In this document: positions 6,522-54,636 of the stretch, piece after piece
Position numbering within the stretch: position 1 is the stretch's first letter
How the letters are laid out: every line of letters begins with the position of its first letter
Assembly (NCBI GenBank): GCA_028286525.1
Contig: JAQBRL010000020.1
Span: forward strand, 7,444 to 71,443
Length of the DNA: 64,000 nt
Direction: 5' to 3'
DNA from: Parcubacteria group bacterium
GTDB lineage: Bacteria; Patescibacteriota; Minisyncoccia; Phycocordibacterales; Phycocordibacteraceae
The notes under the pieces: generated by a model
The model's input: only the letters and a program-made list of their open reading frames with translations
Told to the model about the DNA's origin: nothing
The model's database searches: none
Made by a program: the position numbers and the translations under genes

Positions 6522-6942
6522 AAAGTCGCGAGCATGCCGTAGTGGCAGCGGCTCGCGACTCCTCGGCTCTTACCTGGAACATGGCGTCGTTTCCTCGTCT
6601 CGCCGCTCGGTCGACGACCGTTTCTCGATCCTTCCGTCGCGTACGGCCTCTTGGAATTCGCTCTGCGGCAGGCCGCAGCCTCGTTGCTGATCCACGATGA
6701 CCCACGCATGGCCTTGGATGACTCGCGCGCGCCCTATCAGTAAGGCTTTGTTTTCTAAGGGCGCTTCAGGACGGTGGCCATGAGGATGGCGCAGCCGTAT
6801 CACGCGATGGGGTGCTACCGCGAATTCCATCGTTCCAGGTTGTCTATCTTTGGGCAAAGAACTCACCTCCTTTCGATGCAAGCGTAAGGTAACCGCATTA
6901 TTGTTACTTCAGGAAGTTTGTCAAGAATGCTATATAGAATGC

Positions 6943-13230: not shown

Positions 13231-15213
13231 ATGACCGTTTCAGAAGTACGCACACGTTACCTCGCCTTCTTTGCGGCGCGTGGTCACGTCATAATCCCAT
13301 CAGCACCGATAGTGCCGGGGAACGACCCTACCACGCTCTTTACCTCGTCCGGCATGCAGCCCCTTATTCCGTACCTGCTCGGTAAGGACCACCCGGAAGG
13401 GAAGCGCATCGTTAATTCCCAGATGAGCTTTCGGGCGGGCGATATCGAGGAAGTGGGCGACAATCGCCACACGACGTTCTTCGAGATGCTCGGCAATTGG
13501 TCGCTCGGCGACTATTTCAAGAAAGAGCAGCTACCCTGGTTCTTCGAGTTCATGACGAGCAAAGAAGAAGGCTTAGGACTCGATCCTACGAAACTCTTCG
13601 TCACGGTATTTGCGGGCGACCCCGATACGGGCATGGAGATGGATACCGAAGCCGTGGGCATATGGCAAGAACTCTTCAAGACCAAAGGCATCGATGCCGA
13701 ATTCGCGGATATCGGCAGCGAAGCAGCCGGCTACGAGCACGGCATTAATGGTAACGAACGCATATTCGCTTACGACGCCAAGAAGAACTGGTGGAGCCGC
13801 TCGGGCGTACCTGCCAACATGCCTGCCGGAGAGCCAGGTGGACCGGATTCCGAGGTCTTCTACGACTTCGGTCTTCCGCACGACCCAAAGTGGGGCCCGA
13901 AATGCCATCCGAACTGCGACTGCGGCCGTTTCGTCGAGATAGGGAACTCGGTCTTCATGCAGTTCATAAAGAATGCTGACGGGTCATTCTCGAATCTTCC
14001 GAAGCAGAACGTGGACTTTGGAGGCGGGCTTGAGCGTCTTGCGTTCGCTACGCTCGATAAACCTGACGTTTTTCTCATAGATGTATTTGATACAGCTCGG
14101 AACGCGATTGAATATCTATCCGGAAAAATATATGGGTCAGATGAAAAAATAACAAAGTCTTTCCGCATCATTTTGGATCACATGAGAGCATCCACCTTCA
14201 TCCTTGCTGAAGGTATAGTTCCCGCAAGCACGGAGGCTGGTTATGTCCTTAGGCGTTTGTTGCGTCGCGCAATTCGTGAGACCGATAGATTGGGAGTCAA
14301 GGACAAAGTTCTTGCATCTGTAGCTGAAGAGTTTGCTGACAAATATGCAGACCAGTATCCACGCTTGCAGGAAAATAAGCTCAAGATTTTGGATGAAATT
14401 GCAAAGGAAGAGGAGCAGTTCAGGAGAACACTCGAAACGGGTTTGAAGCAATTCGAGAAGGCAATCAGCATTAAGTCAGGCATTGTTAGCAATGCCGATC
14501 AACGCAAGGAACTTGAAGAACGAGTCTACATTAAGACTCTGGGAGCAGAAACGGTTTTCGAGTTGATGACAACCTATGGCTTCCCAGAAGAACTCATTCG
14601 AGAAGAACTAGCTTCGCACAATATCTCAGTTGATGATTGGGATATGGTCAAAAGCTTGTTCGAAAAACATCGCGAGCTTTCCCGCGCCGGAGGCGCGCAG
14701 AAATTCGCCGGAGGCCTTGCCGACCACTCCGAGCAGACCGTGCGCTACCACACGACGCATCACATCCTACTCAAAGCGCTCCAGATGGTGCTCGGGGACG
14801 AGGTCAAGCAGCGGGGAAGCAATATCACGAGCGAGCGCTTGCGCATCGACTTCTCCTCCCCCGGCAAGATGACTCCAGAGCAGAAAGAAGAGGTAGAGAG
14901 GATAGTGAACGAAATTATCTACCAGGACCTGCCGGTATCGCGCACCGTCATGCCACGGGAAGAGGCCGAGAAGCTCGGTGCCCAGATGGAATTCGGGGTG
15001 AAGTATCCCGACATGGTATCGGTGTATTCGGTCGGTCCTATCCATGCAACAGAGGAGAATCCCGATATTCCGAACGCATTCTCGCTGGAGTTCTGCGGCG
15101 GACCGCATGTGAAGAGCACAAAGGATATCCATGACGGCGGCAAGCGTTTCAAGATACAGAAAGAGGAGGCAGTCGCTGCAGGCATCCGCCGCATCAAGGC
15201 AGTGCTCGAATAA
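13231..15213 (+). CDS. alaS: Alanyl-tRNA synthetase, short form (catalytic, tRNA-recognition and editing domains; no C-Ala domain)
   Basis: Class II AlaRS N-terminal motifs are present. The editing-domain HTTHHILLKALQ and CGGPHV signatures are also present. The protein is 660 aa. Confidence 0.95.
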   Translation: MTVSEVRTRYLAFFAARGHVIIPSAPIVPGNDPTTLFTSSGMQPLIPYLLGKDHPEGKRIVNSQMSFRAGDIEEVGDNRHTTFFEMLGNWSLGDYFKKEQLPWFFEFMTSKEEGLGLDPTKLFVTVFAGDPDTGMEMDTEAVGIWQELFKTKGIDAEFADIGSEAAGYEHGINGNERIFAYDAKKNWWSRSGVPANMPAGEPGGPDSEVFYDFGLPHDPKWGPKCHPNCDCGRFVEIGNSVFMQFIKNADGSFSNLPKQNVDFGGGLERLAFATLDKPDVFLIDVFDTARNAIEYLSGKIYGSDEKITKSFRIILDHMRASTFILAEGIVPASTEAGYVLRRLLRRAIRETDRLGVKDKVLASVAEEFADKYADQYPRLQENKLKILDEIAKEEEQFRRTLETGLKQFEKAISIKSGIVSNADQRKELEERVYIKTLGAETVFELMTTYGFPEELIREELASHNISVDDWDMVKSLFEKHRELSRAGGAQKFAGGLADHSEQTVRYHTTHHILLKALQMVLGDEVKQRGSNITSERLRIDFSSPGKMTPEQKEEVERIVNEIIYQDLPVSRTVMPREEAEKLGAQMEFGVKYPDMVSVYSVGPIHATEENPDIPNAFSLEFCGGPHVKSTKDIHDGGKRFKIQKEEAVAAGIRRIKAVLE

Positions 15214-33572: not shown

Positions 33573-33606
33573 ACGCCCCGGCTGCACTGGCCGGGGCGTT
33601 TCTACA
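33573..33606 (+). terminator. Rho-independent terminator
   Basis: A GC stem (acgccccgg ... ccggggcgt) is followed by TTTCTAC. Confidence 0.6.
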
Positions 33607-33622
33607 GAGAAGGCACTATTTT

Positions 33623-34030
33623 ATGTTATATAATCCACATACTATGAATTTTGGGGAACACCTGACACTCGACGGATATGGAGGCGATTATGAGCTGCTG
33701 AATGATCGCGAATACGTGCGTTCTTGCTTCGATGAACTCTTGGCCCATCTGGAGATGCATCCCCTTATCGAACCGGTGATCATCGAAGCGCCTGACAACC
33801 AGATCAAGGACCCCGGAGGCTGGAGCGGCTACGTGGTCATCGCAGAGAGCCATATCAGCATCCACACATTCCCGAAACGGAAGTTCATTTCAGCCGATGT
33901 ATACACCTGCCGAAACGGTATGGATAGGGAATATATCACTGAATATTTTAGAACGAAGTTCAAACTGACCGATCTCGAGACTAACTTCATCGTGCGCGGC
34001 ACCCGGTATCCCGAGCATAATCTCGTATGA
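33623..34030 (+). CDS. speH: S-adenosylmethionine decarboxylase proenzyme (pyruvoyl-dependent, SpeH type)
   Basis: LTLDGYGGD and the self-cleavage-site motif VVIAESHISIHTFPK are present; the start is possibly at MNFGEHL. Confidence 0.75.
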   Translation: MLYNPHTMNFGEHLTLDGYGGDYELLNDREYVRSCFDELLAHLEMHPLIEPVIIEAPDNQIKDPGGWSGYVVIAESHISIHTFPKRKFISADVYTCRNGMDREYITEYFRTKFKLTDLETNFIVRGTRYPEHNLV

Positions 34031-34635
34031 CAATACAGGCACTGTTTGGGATTGCCGCCGGCATATTATCGTTCGTCGCATACCCTGTCTACATACGAGA
34101 CATTCTCCGCGGTGAAACGAAGCCGAGCAAGGTAACCTGGTGGGTGCTCGCCTTCCTGAATGCTGCCCTTACCGCGAGCTATTATGCGTCAGGCGCTCGG
34201 GATACGATCTGGATTCCTATCAGTTATACCCTGGGATTCTCTGTCGTAGCGTTTCTTTCTCTCAAATACGGAGAGGGAAATTGGGAAAAGAGCGACTGGA
34301 TCTGCCTTACCGGCGCGGCAGTGAGCTTGTTCTTGTGGTGGTTCCTTCAGTCTGCCGAGGTTGCGCTATATCTTATTATAATCACTGATTTCATTGGTCT
34401 CGTCCCCACTATCTATAAGACGTACAAGAGACCCTGGACAGAGAGCAGGCTCTCTTGGTCAATCGCATTGATCGCCAGCGCGCTGAACGTGATCGCGATC
34501 GAGGATTGGTCTCCCGCAATCAGTTTCTATCCGTTCTATGTAGTGATAACGAATGCTCTTATCGTAGGATTTATATTGTTTCCGAGACATCGTGAACAGC
34601 AGATTGTTGAGCCTCGCAGCGATTCCGGCGCATGA
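34027..34635 (+). CDS. Hypothetical polytopic membrane protein
   Basis: Six or more TM helices are present, with 4-nt overlaps to both the upstream and downstream genes. Confidence 0.5.
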   Translation: MTIQALFGIAAGILSFVAYPVYIRDILRGETKPSKVTWWVLAFLNAALTASYYASGARDTIWIPISYTLGFSVVAFLSLKYGEGNWEKSDWICLTGAAVSLFLWWFLQSAEVALYLIIITDFIGLVPTIYKTYKRPWTESRLSWSIALIASALNVIAIEDWSPAISFYPFYVVITNALIVGFILFPRHREQQIVEPRSDSGA

Positions 34636-35573
34636 TTCCACAATTCCCCGACTTCAAGCAGCTTGAGTTTTCGGACAAAGACGAATTGGAGACATTCGCC
34701 GCTGGATTTTCGCCCTACTCCGATTTTGAATTCGCCAGCTTGTGGGCTTGGAACGTTCAAGAGAACATGGAACTGTCTCTACTACGAAAAAATCTAGTTG
34801 TGCGCTTCACAGATTACGTTACAGGCGCATTTTTTTATACTTTTCTTGGCAAAACCGAACTGAACGATACTGCTGAAGAGCTTATCGCCCTTTCTGAGAA
34901 AAAAGGCTATGGTTCCGTCTTACATCTGATACCAGAGGAGGCTATTACCGGACTTGATACCGACAGATTCGATATTACGGAATCACGTGACCATTTCGAT
35001 TATCTGTACGAAGTGGAGCAGCACGTAACGTATGGCGGCGGGAAGCTCAAATCAAGGCGCAATTTTTTGAATGGCTTCCTGAAGACCTATCCGCATTACG
35101 GTGCCGTACCTCTTGATCTTTCTGACGAGCTCACCCGGCGCGAAGTGCTCGAACTCTGTCGTAGATGGGAAGAGAATAAGGGATTTCCGATCCCTAATGA
35201 GCAGCGGGCTCTGAGCCGTTTTCTCGATGTTGCGCACTTTTTCACGTATAGCGCAGTCGGTATTACGATCGACAGCACGTTGGTAGGCTTCTGCACGACC
35301 GTGTTGCTCCGCGATGGGCGCGCAAACGCGCTTTTCGAAAAAGTAGATATCCGCTATCACGGTATCCATGCGCTGCTTCGGCATGAAGTGGCCAAGAACC
35401 TTATACGCGCGCGCTATACGCATCTTAATTATGAACAGGATCTTGGGATACTCTCTCTTCGCCAGTCGAAGACAGCCTTTAACCCGACCGGCTTCTTGAA
35501 GAAATATAGCGTTTCTCGCAAACGCACGGATGCGTTCGCTTCACAGACTCAACTTCCAGCTGAATTCGACTAG
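34632..35573 (+). CDS. DUF2156 / MprF C-terminal-like (aminoacyl-tRNA-dependent transferase fold) protein
   Basis: Its length and blocks (DFEFASLWAW, GYGSVLHLIPEEA) resemble the LPG-synthase C-terminal domain; the assignment is moderate. Confidence 0.45.
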   Translation: MIPQFPDFKQLEFSDKDELETFAAGFSPYSDFEFASLWAWNVQENMELSLLRKNLVVRFTDYVTGAFFYTFLGKTELNDTAEELIALSEKKGYGSVLHLIPEEAITGLDTDRFDITESRDHFDYLYEVEQHVTYGGGKLKSRRNFLNGFLKTYPHYGAVPLDLSDELTRREVLELCRRWEENKGFPIPNEQRALSRFLDVAHFFTYSAVGITIDSTLVGFCTTVLLRDGRANALFEKVDIRYHGIHALLRHEVAKNLIRARYTHLNYEQDLGILSLRQSKTAFNPTGFLKKYSVSRKRTDAFASQTQLPAEFD

Positions 35574-35630
35574 TGGAGAAGAGTCCTGGACGTTTATTCG
35601 GTTGGTATACTTACATACGAAGCTTGAACA

Positions 35631-35990
35631 ATGCACCGCTCTGCCCATAAAACTACATTCCTCATATGTGTCGGCATATTGGTGTTGATCGTCGCGATAC
35701 ATAATTTCGCTCGCTACTATGTGGCGAAAGATTATCCGTTCCATGTATTTACGAGCTGCGCTCCCTTCATGCACAGCTGCTTTACTGCTGACCCGACCAA
35801 CTCAGATCCGACATTCCAGGGCGGCGCATACGAAAAGGTCATGATCGACGCCGCACATGCACCGATATGCTTAGAGGAGCATACGTGCGCAAATTTCTCT
35901 TGCGATGGGCTCGGCGCACTATGCCAGGTGACGTATTGTTCGCCGGACGCTCTGGAAGATGGCGAAAGCTGCACTAGTTCAACTCAATAG
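35631..35990 (+). CDS. Small Cys-rich secreted or anchored protein
   Basis: An N-terminal TM or signal segment is followed by 9 Cys in about 80 residues. Confidence 0.4.
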   Translation: MHRSAHKTTFLICVGILVLIVAIHNFARYYVAKDYPFHVFTSCAPFMHSCFTADPTNSDPTFQGGAYEKVMIDAAHAPICLEEHTCANFSCDGLGALCQVTYCSPDALEDGESCTSSTQ

Positions 35991-35992
35991 CT

Positions 35993-37639
35993 ATGCTGGC
36001 ATATTTTATACACGCCCAATACTGCTACGAATATCTGGTAAATCAGATCCCGATGGGCCTGCTGCTGTATTCGCACCTACCGACATCGCTTCTTGCCCTC
36101 GCATTCGGGACATATGTGCTCTTCAAGGCACGTACACTTCCAGCCTTTCTCTTCTTCAATGTCTGTCTCATGTTCGCTATCTGGGCAGCATTCGATTTGA
36201 GCGCTTGGTTCGCGTTCCTCGGAGCCGATAATGTCATGTTCACCTGGTCTCTCCTCGATTTCTTTGCGGTACTCATGTTCTTTTTTACGTACTACTTCCT
36301 GTACACGTTCGTGACTGGTAAAGATCTACCGCTCTGGCAGAAACTCATCGGCATCGCTATTCTATTGCCCACAACGGTTATCGCGTTCATGGGAGTGAAC
36401 ATACCGACATACGACCTCAATTCCTGCACCGCGCTTGAGGACAACGCCTACACCATCTACACGTACATTGCCGAAGGGATATACATCCTGGTCACGATAG
36501 CGTTCCTCACTATCGAGTACCTGAAGAAGAAGGAGCGTACGCAACGACGTCGTACTCTCCTCGCCGGTACTGGAGTCCTGATATTCCTCGGGTTCTTCTT
36601 CTCAGCGAGTTTTCTGGTCAGTCTATACGCGAGCAGCGATGCATCTTCATACGTATACAACTATTTGATCTATGGATTATTTGGGATGCCGGTATTTCTC
36701 ATCTATCTTGGGTATCTAATCGTCAGATACCACGCATTCAATCTTAAGACATTCGGGGTACAGGCTCTTGTCGTGGCACTCATTGCAGTCCTCGCTTCTG
36801 AGTTTGCGTTCGTGACTACCCTTACGAGCCGCGTCCTTGTCGCCGTCACGCTTATCCTTACCGGCATTATCGGGACCCAGCTTATCCGGAGCGTTAAACG
36901 TGAAATAGAGCAGCGTGAGCATATAGAAAAACTTGCAGGAGATCTTGAGAAGGCGAATGAGCAGCAAATAGTCCTCATTCATTTCATTACGCACCAGATC
37001 AAAGGCTTCGTAACCAAGTCGCGCAATATCTTCTCGATGGTGCTCGAGGGAGATTTCGGATCAGTGCCAGAGCAAATGAAACCCATGCTCGAAGAGGGAT
37101 TCAGTTCGGACACCAAGGGCATGAACACGATTCAAGAGATTTTGAACGCAGCGAATATAAAAAGCGGGAAGGTCACGTATGCGATGGCGCCATTCGACAT
37201 GAAACTATTCATCGAGGAGATAGCGAAGGAACTCAAGCCTGCTGCCGATGCGAAAGGCCTCGAATTTACGCTTGACCTGGGCATGGGTACCGACGTCGTG
37301 ACAGGAGACCGGGGGCAGCTCGTGAATGTGTTCAAGAACCTCATCGACAACTCCATAAAATACACGCAGAAGGGCACGGTCACGGTACGCCTGAAAAAAG
37401 AAACCGGTAAGGTCATTTTCACGATCGAAGACACGGGTGTCGGGATCACGCCAGAGGATATGAAGAACCTATTCACGGAAGGAGGACACGGGAAGGAATC
37501 CACGAAGGTGAACGTGGAGTCCACTGGTTTCGGTCTCTACATCGTGAAGAACATCATCGATGCCCATAAGGGCAAGGTCTGGGCCGAGTCCGAAGGCGCA
37601 GGGAAGGGGAGCCGCTTCATCGTCGAGCTTCCCGCATAG
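35993..37639 (+). CDS. Sensor histidine kinase with multi-TM N-terminal sensor domain (orphan)
   Basis: About 7 TM helices are followed by an H-box (HFITHQIKG) and HATPase_c N/G1/G2 boxes (NLIDNSIKYT, EDTGVGI, GFGLYIV). Confidence 0.85.
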   Translation: MLAYFIHAQYCYEYLVNQIPMGLLLYSHLPTSLLALAFGTYVLFKARTLPAFLFFNVCLMFAIWAAFDLSAWFAFLGADNVMFTWSLLDFFAVLMFFFTYYFLYTFVTGKDLPLWQKLIGIAILLPTTVIAFMGVNIPTYDLNSCTALEDNAYTIYTYIAEGIYILVTIAFLTIEYLKKKERTQRRRTLLAGTGVLIFLGFFFSASFLVSLYASSDASSYVYNYLIYGLFGMPVFLIYLGYLIVRYHAFNLKTFGVQALVVALIAVLASEFAFVTTLTSRVLVAVTLILTGIIGTQLIRSVKREIEQREHIEKLAGDLEKANEQQIVLIHFITHQIKGFVTKSRNIFSMVLEGDFGSVPEQMKPMLEEGFSSDTKGMNTIQEILNAANIKSGKVTYAMAPFDMKLFIEEIAKELKPAADAKGLEFTLDLGMGTDVVTGDRGQLVNVFKNLIDNSIKYTQKGTVTVRLKKETGKVIFTIEDTGVGITPEDMKNLFTEGGHGKESTKVNVESTGFGLYIVKNIIDAHKGKVWAESEGAGKGSRFIVELPA

Positions 37640-52372: not shown

Positions 52373-53725
52373 ATGCAGGTACGTTCATTCGGTATTGCCC
52401 TCATCCTGCTCGCACTCTCACTCGCGTTCGTCGGCCCGTTCACGCATAGCGTAGAGGCCCAAGCTGCCGCTGATATCCAGCAGCAGATAGCAGCGCATAA
52501 CAAGCAGATCGCGGACCTCGACGCCGAGATCGCTGCCTACCAGAAGCAGTTGGATGCACTCGGCAACCAGCATCAGACGCTCGCCACTTCCATCAAGTCG
52601 CTCGATACGCAGCGGGCACAGCTCACGACGAAGATCAAATCGTTGCAGCAGCAGATAACGGCGCTCAATCTCGAACTCAAGCAGCTCGGCTATCAGATAG
52701 CGGACAAGCAGCAATCCATCGATCTCAATAAGCGCGCGGTCGCGCAATCGCTGCGCGACATCGCGCTCGCCGATAATTCCTCCGTCGTGGAGCAGGTATT
52801 CTCTTCCAATAATCTCACCGACGCGTGGGCCGCCGTCGATGCGAACGTAACGCTGAACCAAGCGCTCCAAGGGCATACGGCGCAGCTCGTGCAGGTGAAG
52901 CAGGAACTTTCCAATCAGCAGCAGTCGGTCAATCAAACCCAGGCGAAATTAGTGACGGTCACCACCGACCTGGGTACGCAGAAAAAAGCGGTGGACGTTA
53001 CGGTGTCGCAAAAGAGCCAGCTGCTCGCGCAGACCAAGAGCCAGGAGAGCAGCTATCAGAGCCTCATCGCCACGAAGAAGGCGCAGCAGAAAGCATTCGA
53101 AAGCGAACTCACCGCGCTCGAAGGCCAACTGAAATCCGTGGGTACCGCGAGCATCCCGCATGTGGGGCAGGGAATACTCAATTGGCCATTCTCTGCGTCC
53201 TTCGCGCAGCACTGCATCGCGATATCCGGCGTGCTCAAGAACAATTACTGCGTCACGCAATACTTCGGCAATACCGCGTTCGCAGCCTCCGGGGCATATA
53301 ACGGAAGCGGCCATAACGGCATCGATATCGGTATGCCTATCGGCACGCCCGTGCAGGCAGCGCTCTCCGGAACGGTGCTCGGCACCGGCAACACCGACCT
53401 CGCCCATGACGCGGCAGGCAATCAGTGCTACTCATTCGGTAAATGGGTCATGATCAAGCACGCCAACGGCCTTTCCACGATGTACGGCCACCTGTCGCAA
53501 ATAAACGTATCGAAAGGACAGGCCGTCTCTACCGGCGACGTGCTTGGATTCTCGGGCGAGACCGGATACGCGACCGGGCCGCATCTCCATTTCGGCGTGT
53601 ATGCGAGCGCGGGCGTGCAGATACTTACGCTCGGTCAGTTCAAGGGCGGAGCCAGCCCATGCGCGAACGCTTCCATGCCGGTCGCTCCGCTTAACGCATA
53701 CCTGAATCCGACATCGTATCTGTAG
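52373..53725 (+). CDS. M23-family peptidase with long N-terminal coiled coil (EnvC/NlpD-like)
   Basis: A signal peptide is followed by a Q-rich coiled coil and M23 motifs HNGIDIG ... GPHLHFGV. Confidence 0.85.
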   Translation: MQVRSFGIALILLALSLAFVGPFTHSVEAQAAADIQQQIAAHNKQIADLDAEIAAYQKQLDALGNQHQTLATSIKSLDTQRAQLTTKIKSLQQQITALNLELKQLGYQIADKQQSIDLNKRAVAQSLRDIALADNSSVVEQVFSSNNLTDAWAAVDANVTLNQALQGHTAQLVQVKQELSNQQQSVNQTQAKLVTVTTDLGTQKKAVDVTVSQKSQLLAQTKSQESSYQSLIATKKAQQKAFESELTALEGQLKSVGTASIPHVGQGILNWPFSASFAQHCIAISGVLKNNYCVTQYFGNTAFAASGAYNGSGHNGIDIGMPIGTPVQAALSGTVLGTGNTDLAHDAAGNQCYSFGKWVMIKHANGLSTMYGHLSQINVSKGQAVSTGDVLGFSGETGYATGPHLHFGVYASAGVQILTLGQFKGGASPCANASMPVAPLNAYLNPTSYL

Positions 53726-53765
53726 TAGTTCGATCCCTAGTCTCCCCTAACTTATAATTATTCTT

Positions 53766-54209
53766 ATGAGTAAGAAAAAAATATGGCTACCTATAGTAAT
53801 CCTACTGATCATTATAGTTGGTCTGGTAATTGCAATGAATAGGAATAATGCGATATCGGAGCCAGCTTATACAAATGAGACCAATGGTTCTGTCAGTTCT
53901 TCAAATTCATCAACGTCATATGCCCCTACCCCTATTGATCGTTCAAAACTTCTTAGCGGCAAATTTACCGAGAATCGATCTCCGGACGGTAAGTTCATCT
54001 CACACACCTTTGATAATGAACAAGGTGATTCTGGGGTATATCTAAGCACCAGCAGCGGCACTGACGTTAGTGCAACGTACTGTGGCTACTTTAAAGAATG
54101 GTCGCCTGATAGCAAAAAAATAACCGTATTTGTCCCTGAAGAGTGCGGTAAGGGTGTGCCACAGAATGAGACCTTTGAGCTACATGTCGATGGCACTATA
54201 AGTAAGTAA
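53766..54209 (+). CDS. Hypothetical signal-anchored protein (low-GC patch)
   Basis: An N-terminal TM helix is present and GC is much lower than the window average. Confidence 0.4.
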   Translation: MSKKKIWLPIVILLIIIVGLVIAMNRNNAISEPAYTNETNGSVSSSNSSTSYAPTPIDRSKLLSGKFTENRSPDGKFISHTFDNEQGDSGVYLSTSSGTDVSATYCGYFKEWSPDSKKITVFVPEECGKGVPQNETFELHVDGTISK

Positions 54210-54282
54210 GTTTTAAGCGGCACACGATCTCTTACGATCCCGTACCGAATTCCTCGCACCAAAACGTGCTAGCATCGCATAT

Positions 54283-54636
54283 ATGAAAACTAGAACTATG
54301 GTAGAGGTGGTCGGAGCACTACTTCTCATCATTCTCTTTGGCTTCGGATGGGCTCGCCAGCACTCCGCTCCACCTGCCGTGCTGCCTGCACAATCGACGA
54401 GGATCTCGGAAGACGACGCCGCACAGATCGCGCTACAGGCCTACCTTGATTCGAAAAAGAGCACCCTGTCCGCGAGCTGTATTTCTGCAGATACCGTACG
54501 TACGGCAACCGATAGCATCGATTTCAATATACGGGAAATCCATAATGCTGCCTGCGGAGGCGATCCGATGACCGCTCCGCGATTAGAGTCCTATACGGTA
54601 AATCTACAGACGGGTAAGGCAACTCTGGAGCAGTAA
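54283..54636 (+). CDS. Hypothetical signal-anchored protein
   Basis: An N-terminal TM helix is present. Confidence 0.4.
   Translation: MKTRTMVEVVGALLLIILFGFGWARQHSAPPAVLPAQSTRISEDDAAQIALQAYLDSKKSTLSASCISADTVRTATDSIDFNIREIHNAACGGDPMTAPRLESYTVNLQTGKATLEQ

Follow-up and report, generated by a model that had tools for sequence, protein, structure and literature searches.

A mosaic alaS gene with a divergent tRNA-recognition domain in a Parcubacteria group bacterium

The alaS gene studied here belongs to an uncultured Parcubacteria group bacterium and encodes alanine--tRNA ligase (alanyl-tRNA synthetase, AlaRS). It lies in a 64-kb stretch of contig JAQBRL010000020.1 (assembly GCA_028286525.1), which was analysed as a whole and is called the window. 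The gene is a mosaic. A tract of foreign ancestry with sharp breakpoints encodes the tRNA-recognition domain and stands in frame between native catalytic and editing domains, with its functional motifs largely conserved. We hold, at a probability of about 0.7, that it is a natural mosaic made by partial horizontal transfer via recombination at conserved motifs.

The gene was compared with those of its sisters, represented by the proteins P0002, P0003 and P0004 and by the loci with DNA L081, L082 and L083. Its parts are given below with the evidence for each, where GC3 is the GC content at third codon positions, aa is amino acids, and pLDDT is the predicted local distance difference test score of the AlphaFold model.

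13231-15213, + strand: alaS, alanine--tRNA ligase of 660 aa (list of open reading frames; Pfam; 100% identity to MDB5195251.1).
13231-14016, + strand: native 5′ part, comprising the class II aminoacylation (catalytic) domain as far as motif 3 (GC3 of 0.62-0.78; 94% identity to P0002-P0004; β strands of the model to aa 266).
14017-14055, + strand: 5′ junction zone, within the conserved motif FGGGLERLAFA (change points of GC3 and mismatch; codon alignment).
14050-14686, + strand: replaced tract, which spans the entire helical domain for tRNA recognition, aa about 274-485 (low GC3; mismatch to the sisters; E. coli alignment; helices of the model).
14670-14698, + strand: 3′ junction zone, at the conserved linker RELSRAGGAQ (change points of GC3 and mismatch; codon alignment; low pLDDT over residues 481-499).
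14699-15213, + strand: native 3′ part, the editing domain with the HTTHH and CGGPH motifs and tRNA_SAD (GC3 of 0.64-0.80; 95-97% identity to P0002-P0004; Pfam).

The original prediction pointed to an abrupt low-GC segment at 14065-14675 inside alaS, and the measurement confirms it. The segment has a GC content of 43.4% against the window mean of 57.4% (standard deviation, sd, 0.037 for 611-bp windows; z = −3.7). The alaS flanks are higher in GC than the segment, as predicted, but their level of 0.53-0.60 is slightly lower than the 'about 60%' given there. The drop is carried by the third positions, GC3 being 0.44 inside the tract (92/211 codons) and 0.71 outside (310/436; Fisher p = 3e-11). 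Because GC falls at synonymous sites, amino-acid composition alone is not a sufficient cause.

Both edges of the tract are sharp. The GC3 change points fall at nucleotides 14017 and 14670, and those of nucleotide mismatch against the three sister genes at 14047-14050 and 14686-14698. For the mismatch breakpoints, the maximum chi-square is 188-224 with the three sisters, as opposed to a permutation maximum of 21. The mismatch to the sisters is 0.44-0.46 within the tract and 0.15 elsewhere in alaS, and GC3 is back to 0.75-0.80 within a few codons beyond either boundary.

Such a dip is peculiar to this gene. In the sisters the mid-domain GC3 is 0.61-0.70 and the flank GC3 0.70-0.74, compared with 0.43 and 0.70-0.74 in the window, and L081 shows only two small low-GC3 patches of its own and no domain-wide dip. 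Among 130 homologous loci, the domain-minus-flank difference in GC3 has a mean of −0.05 and an sd of 0.05, and the window value of −0.285 is the extreme (z = −4.9). Along the ~23 kb that are syntenic with sister contig L082, alaS is the sole well-conserved gene, that is, with at least 60% protein identity, whose GC3 deficit over 40 codons goes beyond −0.25, reaching −0.45. In the same synteny block, a poorly conserved minus-strand open reading frame of 100 aa at 6573-6872 (42% identity) has a deficit that reaches −0.30.

The ancestry of the tract differs from that of its flanks. Both flanks are 93-97% identical in protein to P0002-P0004, whereas the tract is 54-55% identical to the same three. 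To all 119 first matches the tract is 48-60% identical, independently of their flank identity of 81-96%, whereas other pairs with flank identity of 94-97% have tract identity of 72-96%. In this gap between flank and tract identity, the window is the most extreme outlier among 237 sequences, and the range of 48-60% for the tract holds for each of more than 230 relatives.

Neighbour-joining joins the flanks to P0002-P0004 in 98 of 100 bootstraps, while no position of the tract inside the broad family gets more than 5 of 100, so the tract has no supported placement. Of the residues specific to the sister clade, the flanks keep 14/16 with 2.5 expected by chance, and the tract keeps 1/11 with 1.3 expected. 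The latter is the chance level, so the tract bears no trace of the gene's own ancestry. Departures from the core-clade consensus occur at 12 of 76 conserved sites in the tract and at 2 of 279 in the flanks; 11-14 such departures are what is usually seen in members of the family with just 60-76% flank identity to the window.

These results support the recombination-derived mosaic of the original prediction. It had named a comparable dip in the sister genes and a segment phylogeny congruent with the flanks as counter-evidence; L081-L083 have no such domain-wide dip and the phylogenies disagree. It had also proposed a separate search with the segment. The similarity pattern indeed differs from that of the flanks, but the search did not lead to a donor lineage, so the low GC content of the donor is read from the composition of the tract alone.

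The tract corresponds to a structural unit. Its residues of about 275-485 align with residues of about 245-438 of E. coli AlaRS, and the AlphaFold model has an all-helical block at 267-483, preceded by the last catalytic strand (to aa 266; motif 3) and followed by a flexible linker and then the editing domain (from aa 501). Because of this helical block between catalytic core and linker and of the E. coli alignment, the tract is taken as the complete tRNA-recognition domain, just where the original prediction had placed it. The predicted fold is confident, with pLDDT of 81-93 over residues 270-410, and the main motifs RIILDH, GYVLRR, KEEEQF and TYGFP are kept.

The reading frame of the 660-aa product runs uninterrupted across the tract, again as predicted. 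The protein is 100% identical to MDB5195251.1 ('MAG: alaS [Parcubacteria group bacterium]'; MAG, metagenome-assembled genome) and aligns with E. coli AlaRS 3HXU at E = 4e-70. Pfam matches tRNA-synt_2c at residues 5-503 (E = 8e-109) and tRNA_SAD at 596-655. The zinc motifs of the editing domain, HxxxH and CxxxH, are present, and the family alignment shows no variation at their H507, H511, C622 and H626. No Pfam match to the C-terminal oligomerisation domain C-Ala (DHHA1-like) was obtained; the protein stops at residue 660 right after the editing domain. AlaRS is 630-660 aa long across the whole family, and the window AlaRS is this short Patescibacteria form.

The tract includes a variable loop, which appears in the alignments and the model as follows.

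14464-14532, + strand: lineage-specific insertion of about 21 aa (AISIKSGIVSNADQRKELEERVYIKT) in the hypervariable loop of the domain (alignments; pLDDT below 55).

At this loop (window residues 412-434) many relatives carry unrelated insertions of 5-40 aa, one type of which is common to L007, L034 and L099. The loop is an insertion and deletion hotspot adjoining the tRNA-contact motif TYGFP. Across the family, the C-terminal third of the domain is the fastest-evolving part of alaS.

The replacement of the whole domain is found once more in the family. In P0051 (L138 3001-4935; Logan SRR29078203, from a different sample and assembler), the whole domain is replaced at the same alignment columns. 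Compared with P0042 (L139 184-2103), its flanks are 93% identical and its mid-domain 58%, and its GC3 is 0.20-0.47 in the domain against 0.6-0.75 in the flanks. The P0051 domain is an orphan as well, with no close relative in the searches, and is about 51% identical to the window domain.

Partial patches of low GC3 and collapsed identity occur in the same domain (residues of about 262-485 in the window numbering) in further high-GC members of the family, namely L101, L034, L038, L074 and L081. At residues of about 400-485 of L101, for example, the identity to L121 is 0.29-0.52 with 0.94 in the flanks, and GC3 is 0.34-0.43 as compared with 0.75-0.83. A common end point, the linker at about residue 485, is seen for the divergent stretches of the window, L138, L101, L034 and L038. 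Elsewhere in the gene, the alaS of L082 (10001-11920) and that of L083 (3001-4920) are 99-100% identical in nucleotides over their last ~130 codons and 71-90% upstream, which points to recent intragenic recombination between both lineages. From these alignments, recombination within alaS looks frequent in the family.

For the window gene we favour a natural replacement, which would have taken place after this lineage diverged from P0002-P0004, the nearest relatives sampled. Some 650 bp that code for the entire tRNA-recognition domain would have been swapped in frame, and the incoming DNA would be the same segment of a homologous but divergent alaS, of the Paceibacterota type and from a genome of lower GC. 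The joins would lie at the two most conserved stretches bracketing the domain, the class II motif 3 (FGGGLER) and the SRAGGAQ linker, so the native catalytic and editing domains would be left untouched. Foreign DNA may have been taken up and then inserted by double crossover or gene conversion at these short conserved stretches. The hybrid AlaRS is presumed active. Cultured Patescibacteria have been found to be naturally competent (PMC10633639).

As neighbour-joining leaves the tract unplaced, the position of the donor is estimated only indirectly, from the consensus departures. The simplest reading of the sequences would be an unsampled, lower-GC lineage about as distant as the relatives with 60-76% flank identity to the window. 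A low GC content is found in most Patescibacteria.

Several observations weigh against a natural replacement, above all the missing donor. Searches with back-translated tract peptides gave at best 54-55% identity in the GTDB genomes (one genome for each of 185,579 species), at best 53-56% in the metagenomes of the Joint Genome Institute (JGI) and no match in viral contigs. The exhaustive HMMER search among 1.84 billion 50%-cluster representatives gave nothing close, the best being 59% over 121 aa. The concatenated mid-domains of the window and P0051 did recover full-length proteins from 5.8 billion, none of them above 61%. Moreover, the domains of the window and P0051 are too dissimilar to each other to share a source, so each needs its own unsampled donor. 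The exact junction matches are short (at most 18 nt) and leave little homology for RecA-type recombination. Lastly, the exact window protein is known from a single source, one 78-kb contig of one MAG.

Further searches fit with these. In the concatenated search the two self-matches score 455 and 426 bits and the next best 241 bits (61%). The tract alone against the 5.8 billion proteins returned only proteins of at most 380 aa and at most 54% identity, in a search that apparently discards targets far exceeding the query in length. The sliding 50-aa best-match scan of the tract found no sub-block with a close match, and the exact window protein is absent from the contig index.

The single source is also what makes an assembly chimera worth weighing, in which reads of two co-occurring Paceibacterota populations were joined, switching at motif 3 and back at the SRAGGAQ linker, and no cell has such a gene. 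Both junctions do fall where the gene is most conserved, and such stretches are where assemblers mis-join. A lower-GC family member, L016 (isolate RYN_393), also seems to share its project with L027/P0291 (isolate RYN_397), another NCBI entry with the window protein's 'alaS' product name, and going by the shared naming the window MAG would belong to this project too. However, the exact nucleotide runs shared in the junction zones with 29 low-GC3 homologues are at most 17-18 nt long (median 8-9), below the usual assembler k of 21-141, and two switches within 650 bp would be needed. The other well-conserved genes over the 23 kb of synteny have no comparable patch. A co-occurring donor abundant enough for assembly should have public relatives, but none exceeds 61%. 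Furthermore, the same architecture with another sequence comes from the different sample and assembler of Logan SRR29078203, and partial patches come from further independent assemblies. A chimera is therefore unlikely in our judgement.

Two other explanations do away with foreign DNA altogether. The domain might have diverged in place by a burst of fast AT-biased evolution, whether by hypermutation of the locus or by a loosening of constraint. The missing donor would then be accounted for, both whole-domain cases being orphans in all databases, and the idea accords with the fast-evolving C-terminal third with its hypervariable loop and with the unusually many consensus departures at conserved sites of the tract. 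Yet the synonymous sites shift as sharply as the amino acids, and we know of no mutational process with such sharp edges over 650 bp. At a tract-sister identity of ~55%, about half of the sister-specific residues should have been kept instead of 1/11. Besides, the key motifs are intact and the fold is predicted confidently. We regard divergence in place as improbable, more so than a chimera. As to its possible mechanisms, a diversity-generating retroelement target was considered and rejected: with the tract as query, blastn and tblastn match nothing in the 64-kb window but that tract, so with no template or second copy there such a mechanism has no support in the window. The other explanation is a conserved compositional feature: function, for instance mRNA structure or the pacing of translation, would keep the domain AT-rich throughout the family. 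The domain does average 0.05 below its flanks in GC3 among the 130 homologues, and local dips within it are present in several members of high GC. But the three sister genes, with their mid-domain GC3 of 0.61-0.70, are judged to refute it, and the window deficit is 4.9 sd from the family mean. The dips also coincide with the collapse of identity to the nearest flank relative, which a pure compositional constraint would not bring about. This last explanation is the least credible of all and we give it hardly any weight.

The replaced tract carries two changes at residues that contact the tRNA acceptor stem in E. coli.

14227-14229, + strand: Ser333, codon AGC, at the position of E. coli Asn303, the U70 contact that rejects G3:C70 (alignment to 3HXU).
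14569-14571, + strand: Thr447, codon ACA, at the position of E. coli Asp400, the G3 minor-groove contact (alignment of LYDTYGFP in E. coli with LMTTYGFP).

The Asn303 position is Asn in 232 of the 237 family sequences and Ser in five, including the window and P0051. Thus both whole-domain replacements carry Ser at this near-universal position. E. coli Asn303 contacts U70, and the N303A mutant charges G3:C70 tRNA-Ala (PMC6055181). By analogy with this mutant, Ser for Asn303 in the imported domain could relax the rejection of G3:C70 tRNAs.

The Asp400 change is of another kind, being common to the group. Asp is missing in all 229 Patescibacteria AlaRS examined among the loci L001-L139 and the proteins P0001-P0120, which have Thr in 199, Ser in 22, Gln in 6 and Ala or Glu in 2, and it occurs (LYDTYGFP) only in the 8 Clostridia/Christensenellaceae loci of the set. 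In the literature Asp400 is the positive G3 contact (PMC6055181) and is described as strictly conserved. The Nanoarchaeum equitans AlaRS has Ile at this position and is G:U-independent on minihelices (PMC11392972). From the alignment, the absence of Asp400 suggests a different mode of acceptor-stem recognition in the Patescibacteria group examined.

As to the cognate tRNA, there is no tRNA-Ala gene within the 64-kb window. At L052 7705-7802, a Paceibacterota-type locus, ARAGORN calls a tRNA-Ala (TGC) candidate with the unusual length of 98 nt, the sole tRNA-Ala call in the 139 fetched loci.

A broader and speculative reading takes in the whole family. The AlaRS tRNA-recognition domain in Paceibacterota might be an exchangeable cassette, repeatedly replaced in whole or in part with the same end at the linker and with unsampled donors. 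The imported versions would lack Asn303 in a family already without Asp400, and the rules of tRNA-Ala recognition would differ there, with recombination reshuffling them and with diversifying selection perhaps acting on the hypervariable loop. We think it doubtful that all of this holds, and we offer it with low confidence.

The other low-GC patches of the window are whole accessory genes and not intragenic patches. One is a 4-kb island at 33600-37500 with a GC content of about 46-52%. Its genes encode an S-adenosylmethionine decarboxylase, a 202-aa open reading frame with no Pfam match, a phosphatidylglycerol lysyltransferase C-terminal-like protein, a 119-aa open reading frame and a histidine kinase, and the island was probably acquired horizontally. 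The lowest-GC stretch (37-45%) is at 53700-54300, where a 147-aa open reading frame with no Pfam match (53766-54209) directly follows an M23 peptidase gene.

A natural replacement, if true, would mean that a domain from a ~45% divergent relative was tolerated in an enzyme essential to translation. Essential genes could then be rebuilt domain by domain, which bears on the modularity of AlaRS. It would also mean that the genome-reduced Patescibacteria, where natural competence was only recently shown experimentally, exchange DNA across deep divergence. The recognition of tRNA-Ala may differ in these bacteria: Ser for Asn303 in the window and P0051 and the lack of Asp400 across the family both touch the textbook G3:U70 identity rule. 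For the analysis of MAGs, compositional dips within core genes are a useful flag for real mosaics or chimeric assembly.

Our literature searches turned up no earlier account of mosaics at the level of domains, whether for alaS or for the candidate phyla radiation (CPR, Patescibacteria). The closest known systems are the penA/pbp mosaics of Neisseria and Streptococcus (PMC10926701; methods in PMC3241670). They are alike in having an in-frame foreign block inside a native gene, with sharp significant breakpoints, phylogenetic incongruence between block and flanks, and a deviating composition of the block. However, their blocks are typically ~15-25% divergent, whereas the window block diverges by about 45% at both the protein and the nucleotide level. 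The window block also differs in that it has no identified donor and coincides exactly with one structural domain. Furthermore, the gene is for an essential aminoacyl-tRNA synthetase with no obvious selective agent such as an antibiotic.

Although essential, aminoacyl-tRNA synthetases move between lineages, being largely self-contained modules with their tRNA (reviewed in PMC7373986). The window alaS resembles such whole-synthetase transfers as a synthetase crossing lineages, but only one domain is exchanged in it and the catalytic and editing domains keep the host history.

The canonical E. coli AlaRS (3HXU) has the same class II core, helical tRNA-recognition domain and editing domain as the window AlaRS. 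The motifs of the contact residues, P-x-x-T-E-A-G-Y-V-L-R-R and T-Y-G-F-P, are conserved in both. The differences are Ser for Asn303 and Thr for Asp400 in the window, the latter Patescibacteria-wide, and the missing match to C-Ala. The Nanoarchaeum equitans enzyme, with Ile at the Asp400 position, is the nearest precedent for the loss of Asp (PMC11392972). A mosaic gene as a kind of event is already known; this one goes beyond the routine in the lack of a sampled donor, the depth of divergence, the exact match to a domain, and a second lineage with the same rare change of a tRNA-identity residue.

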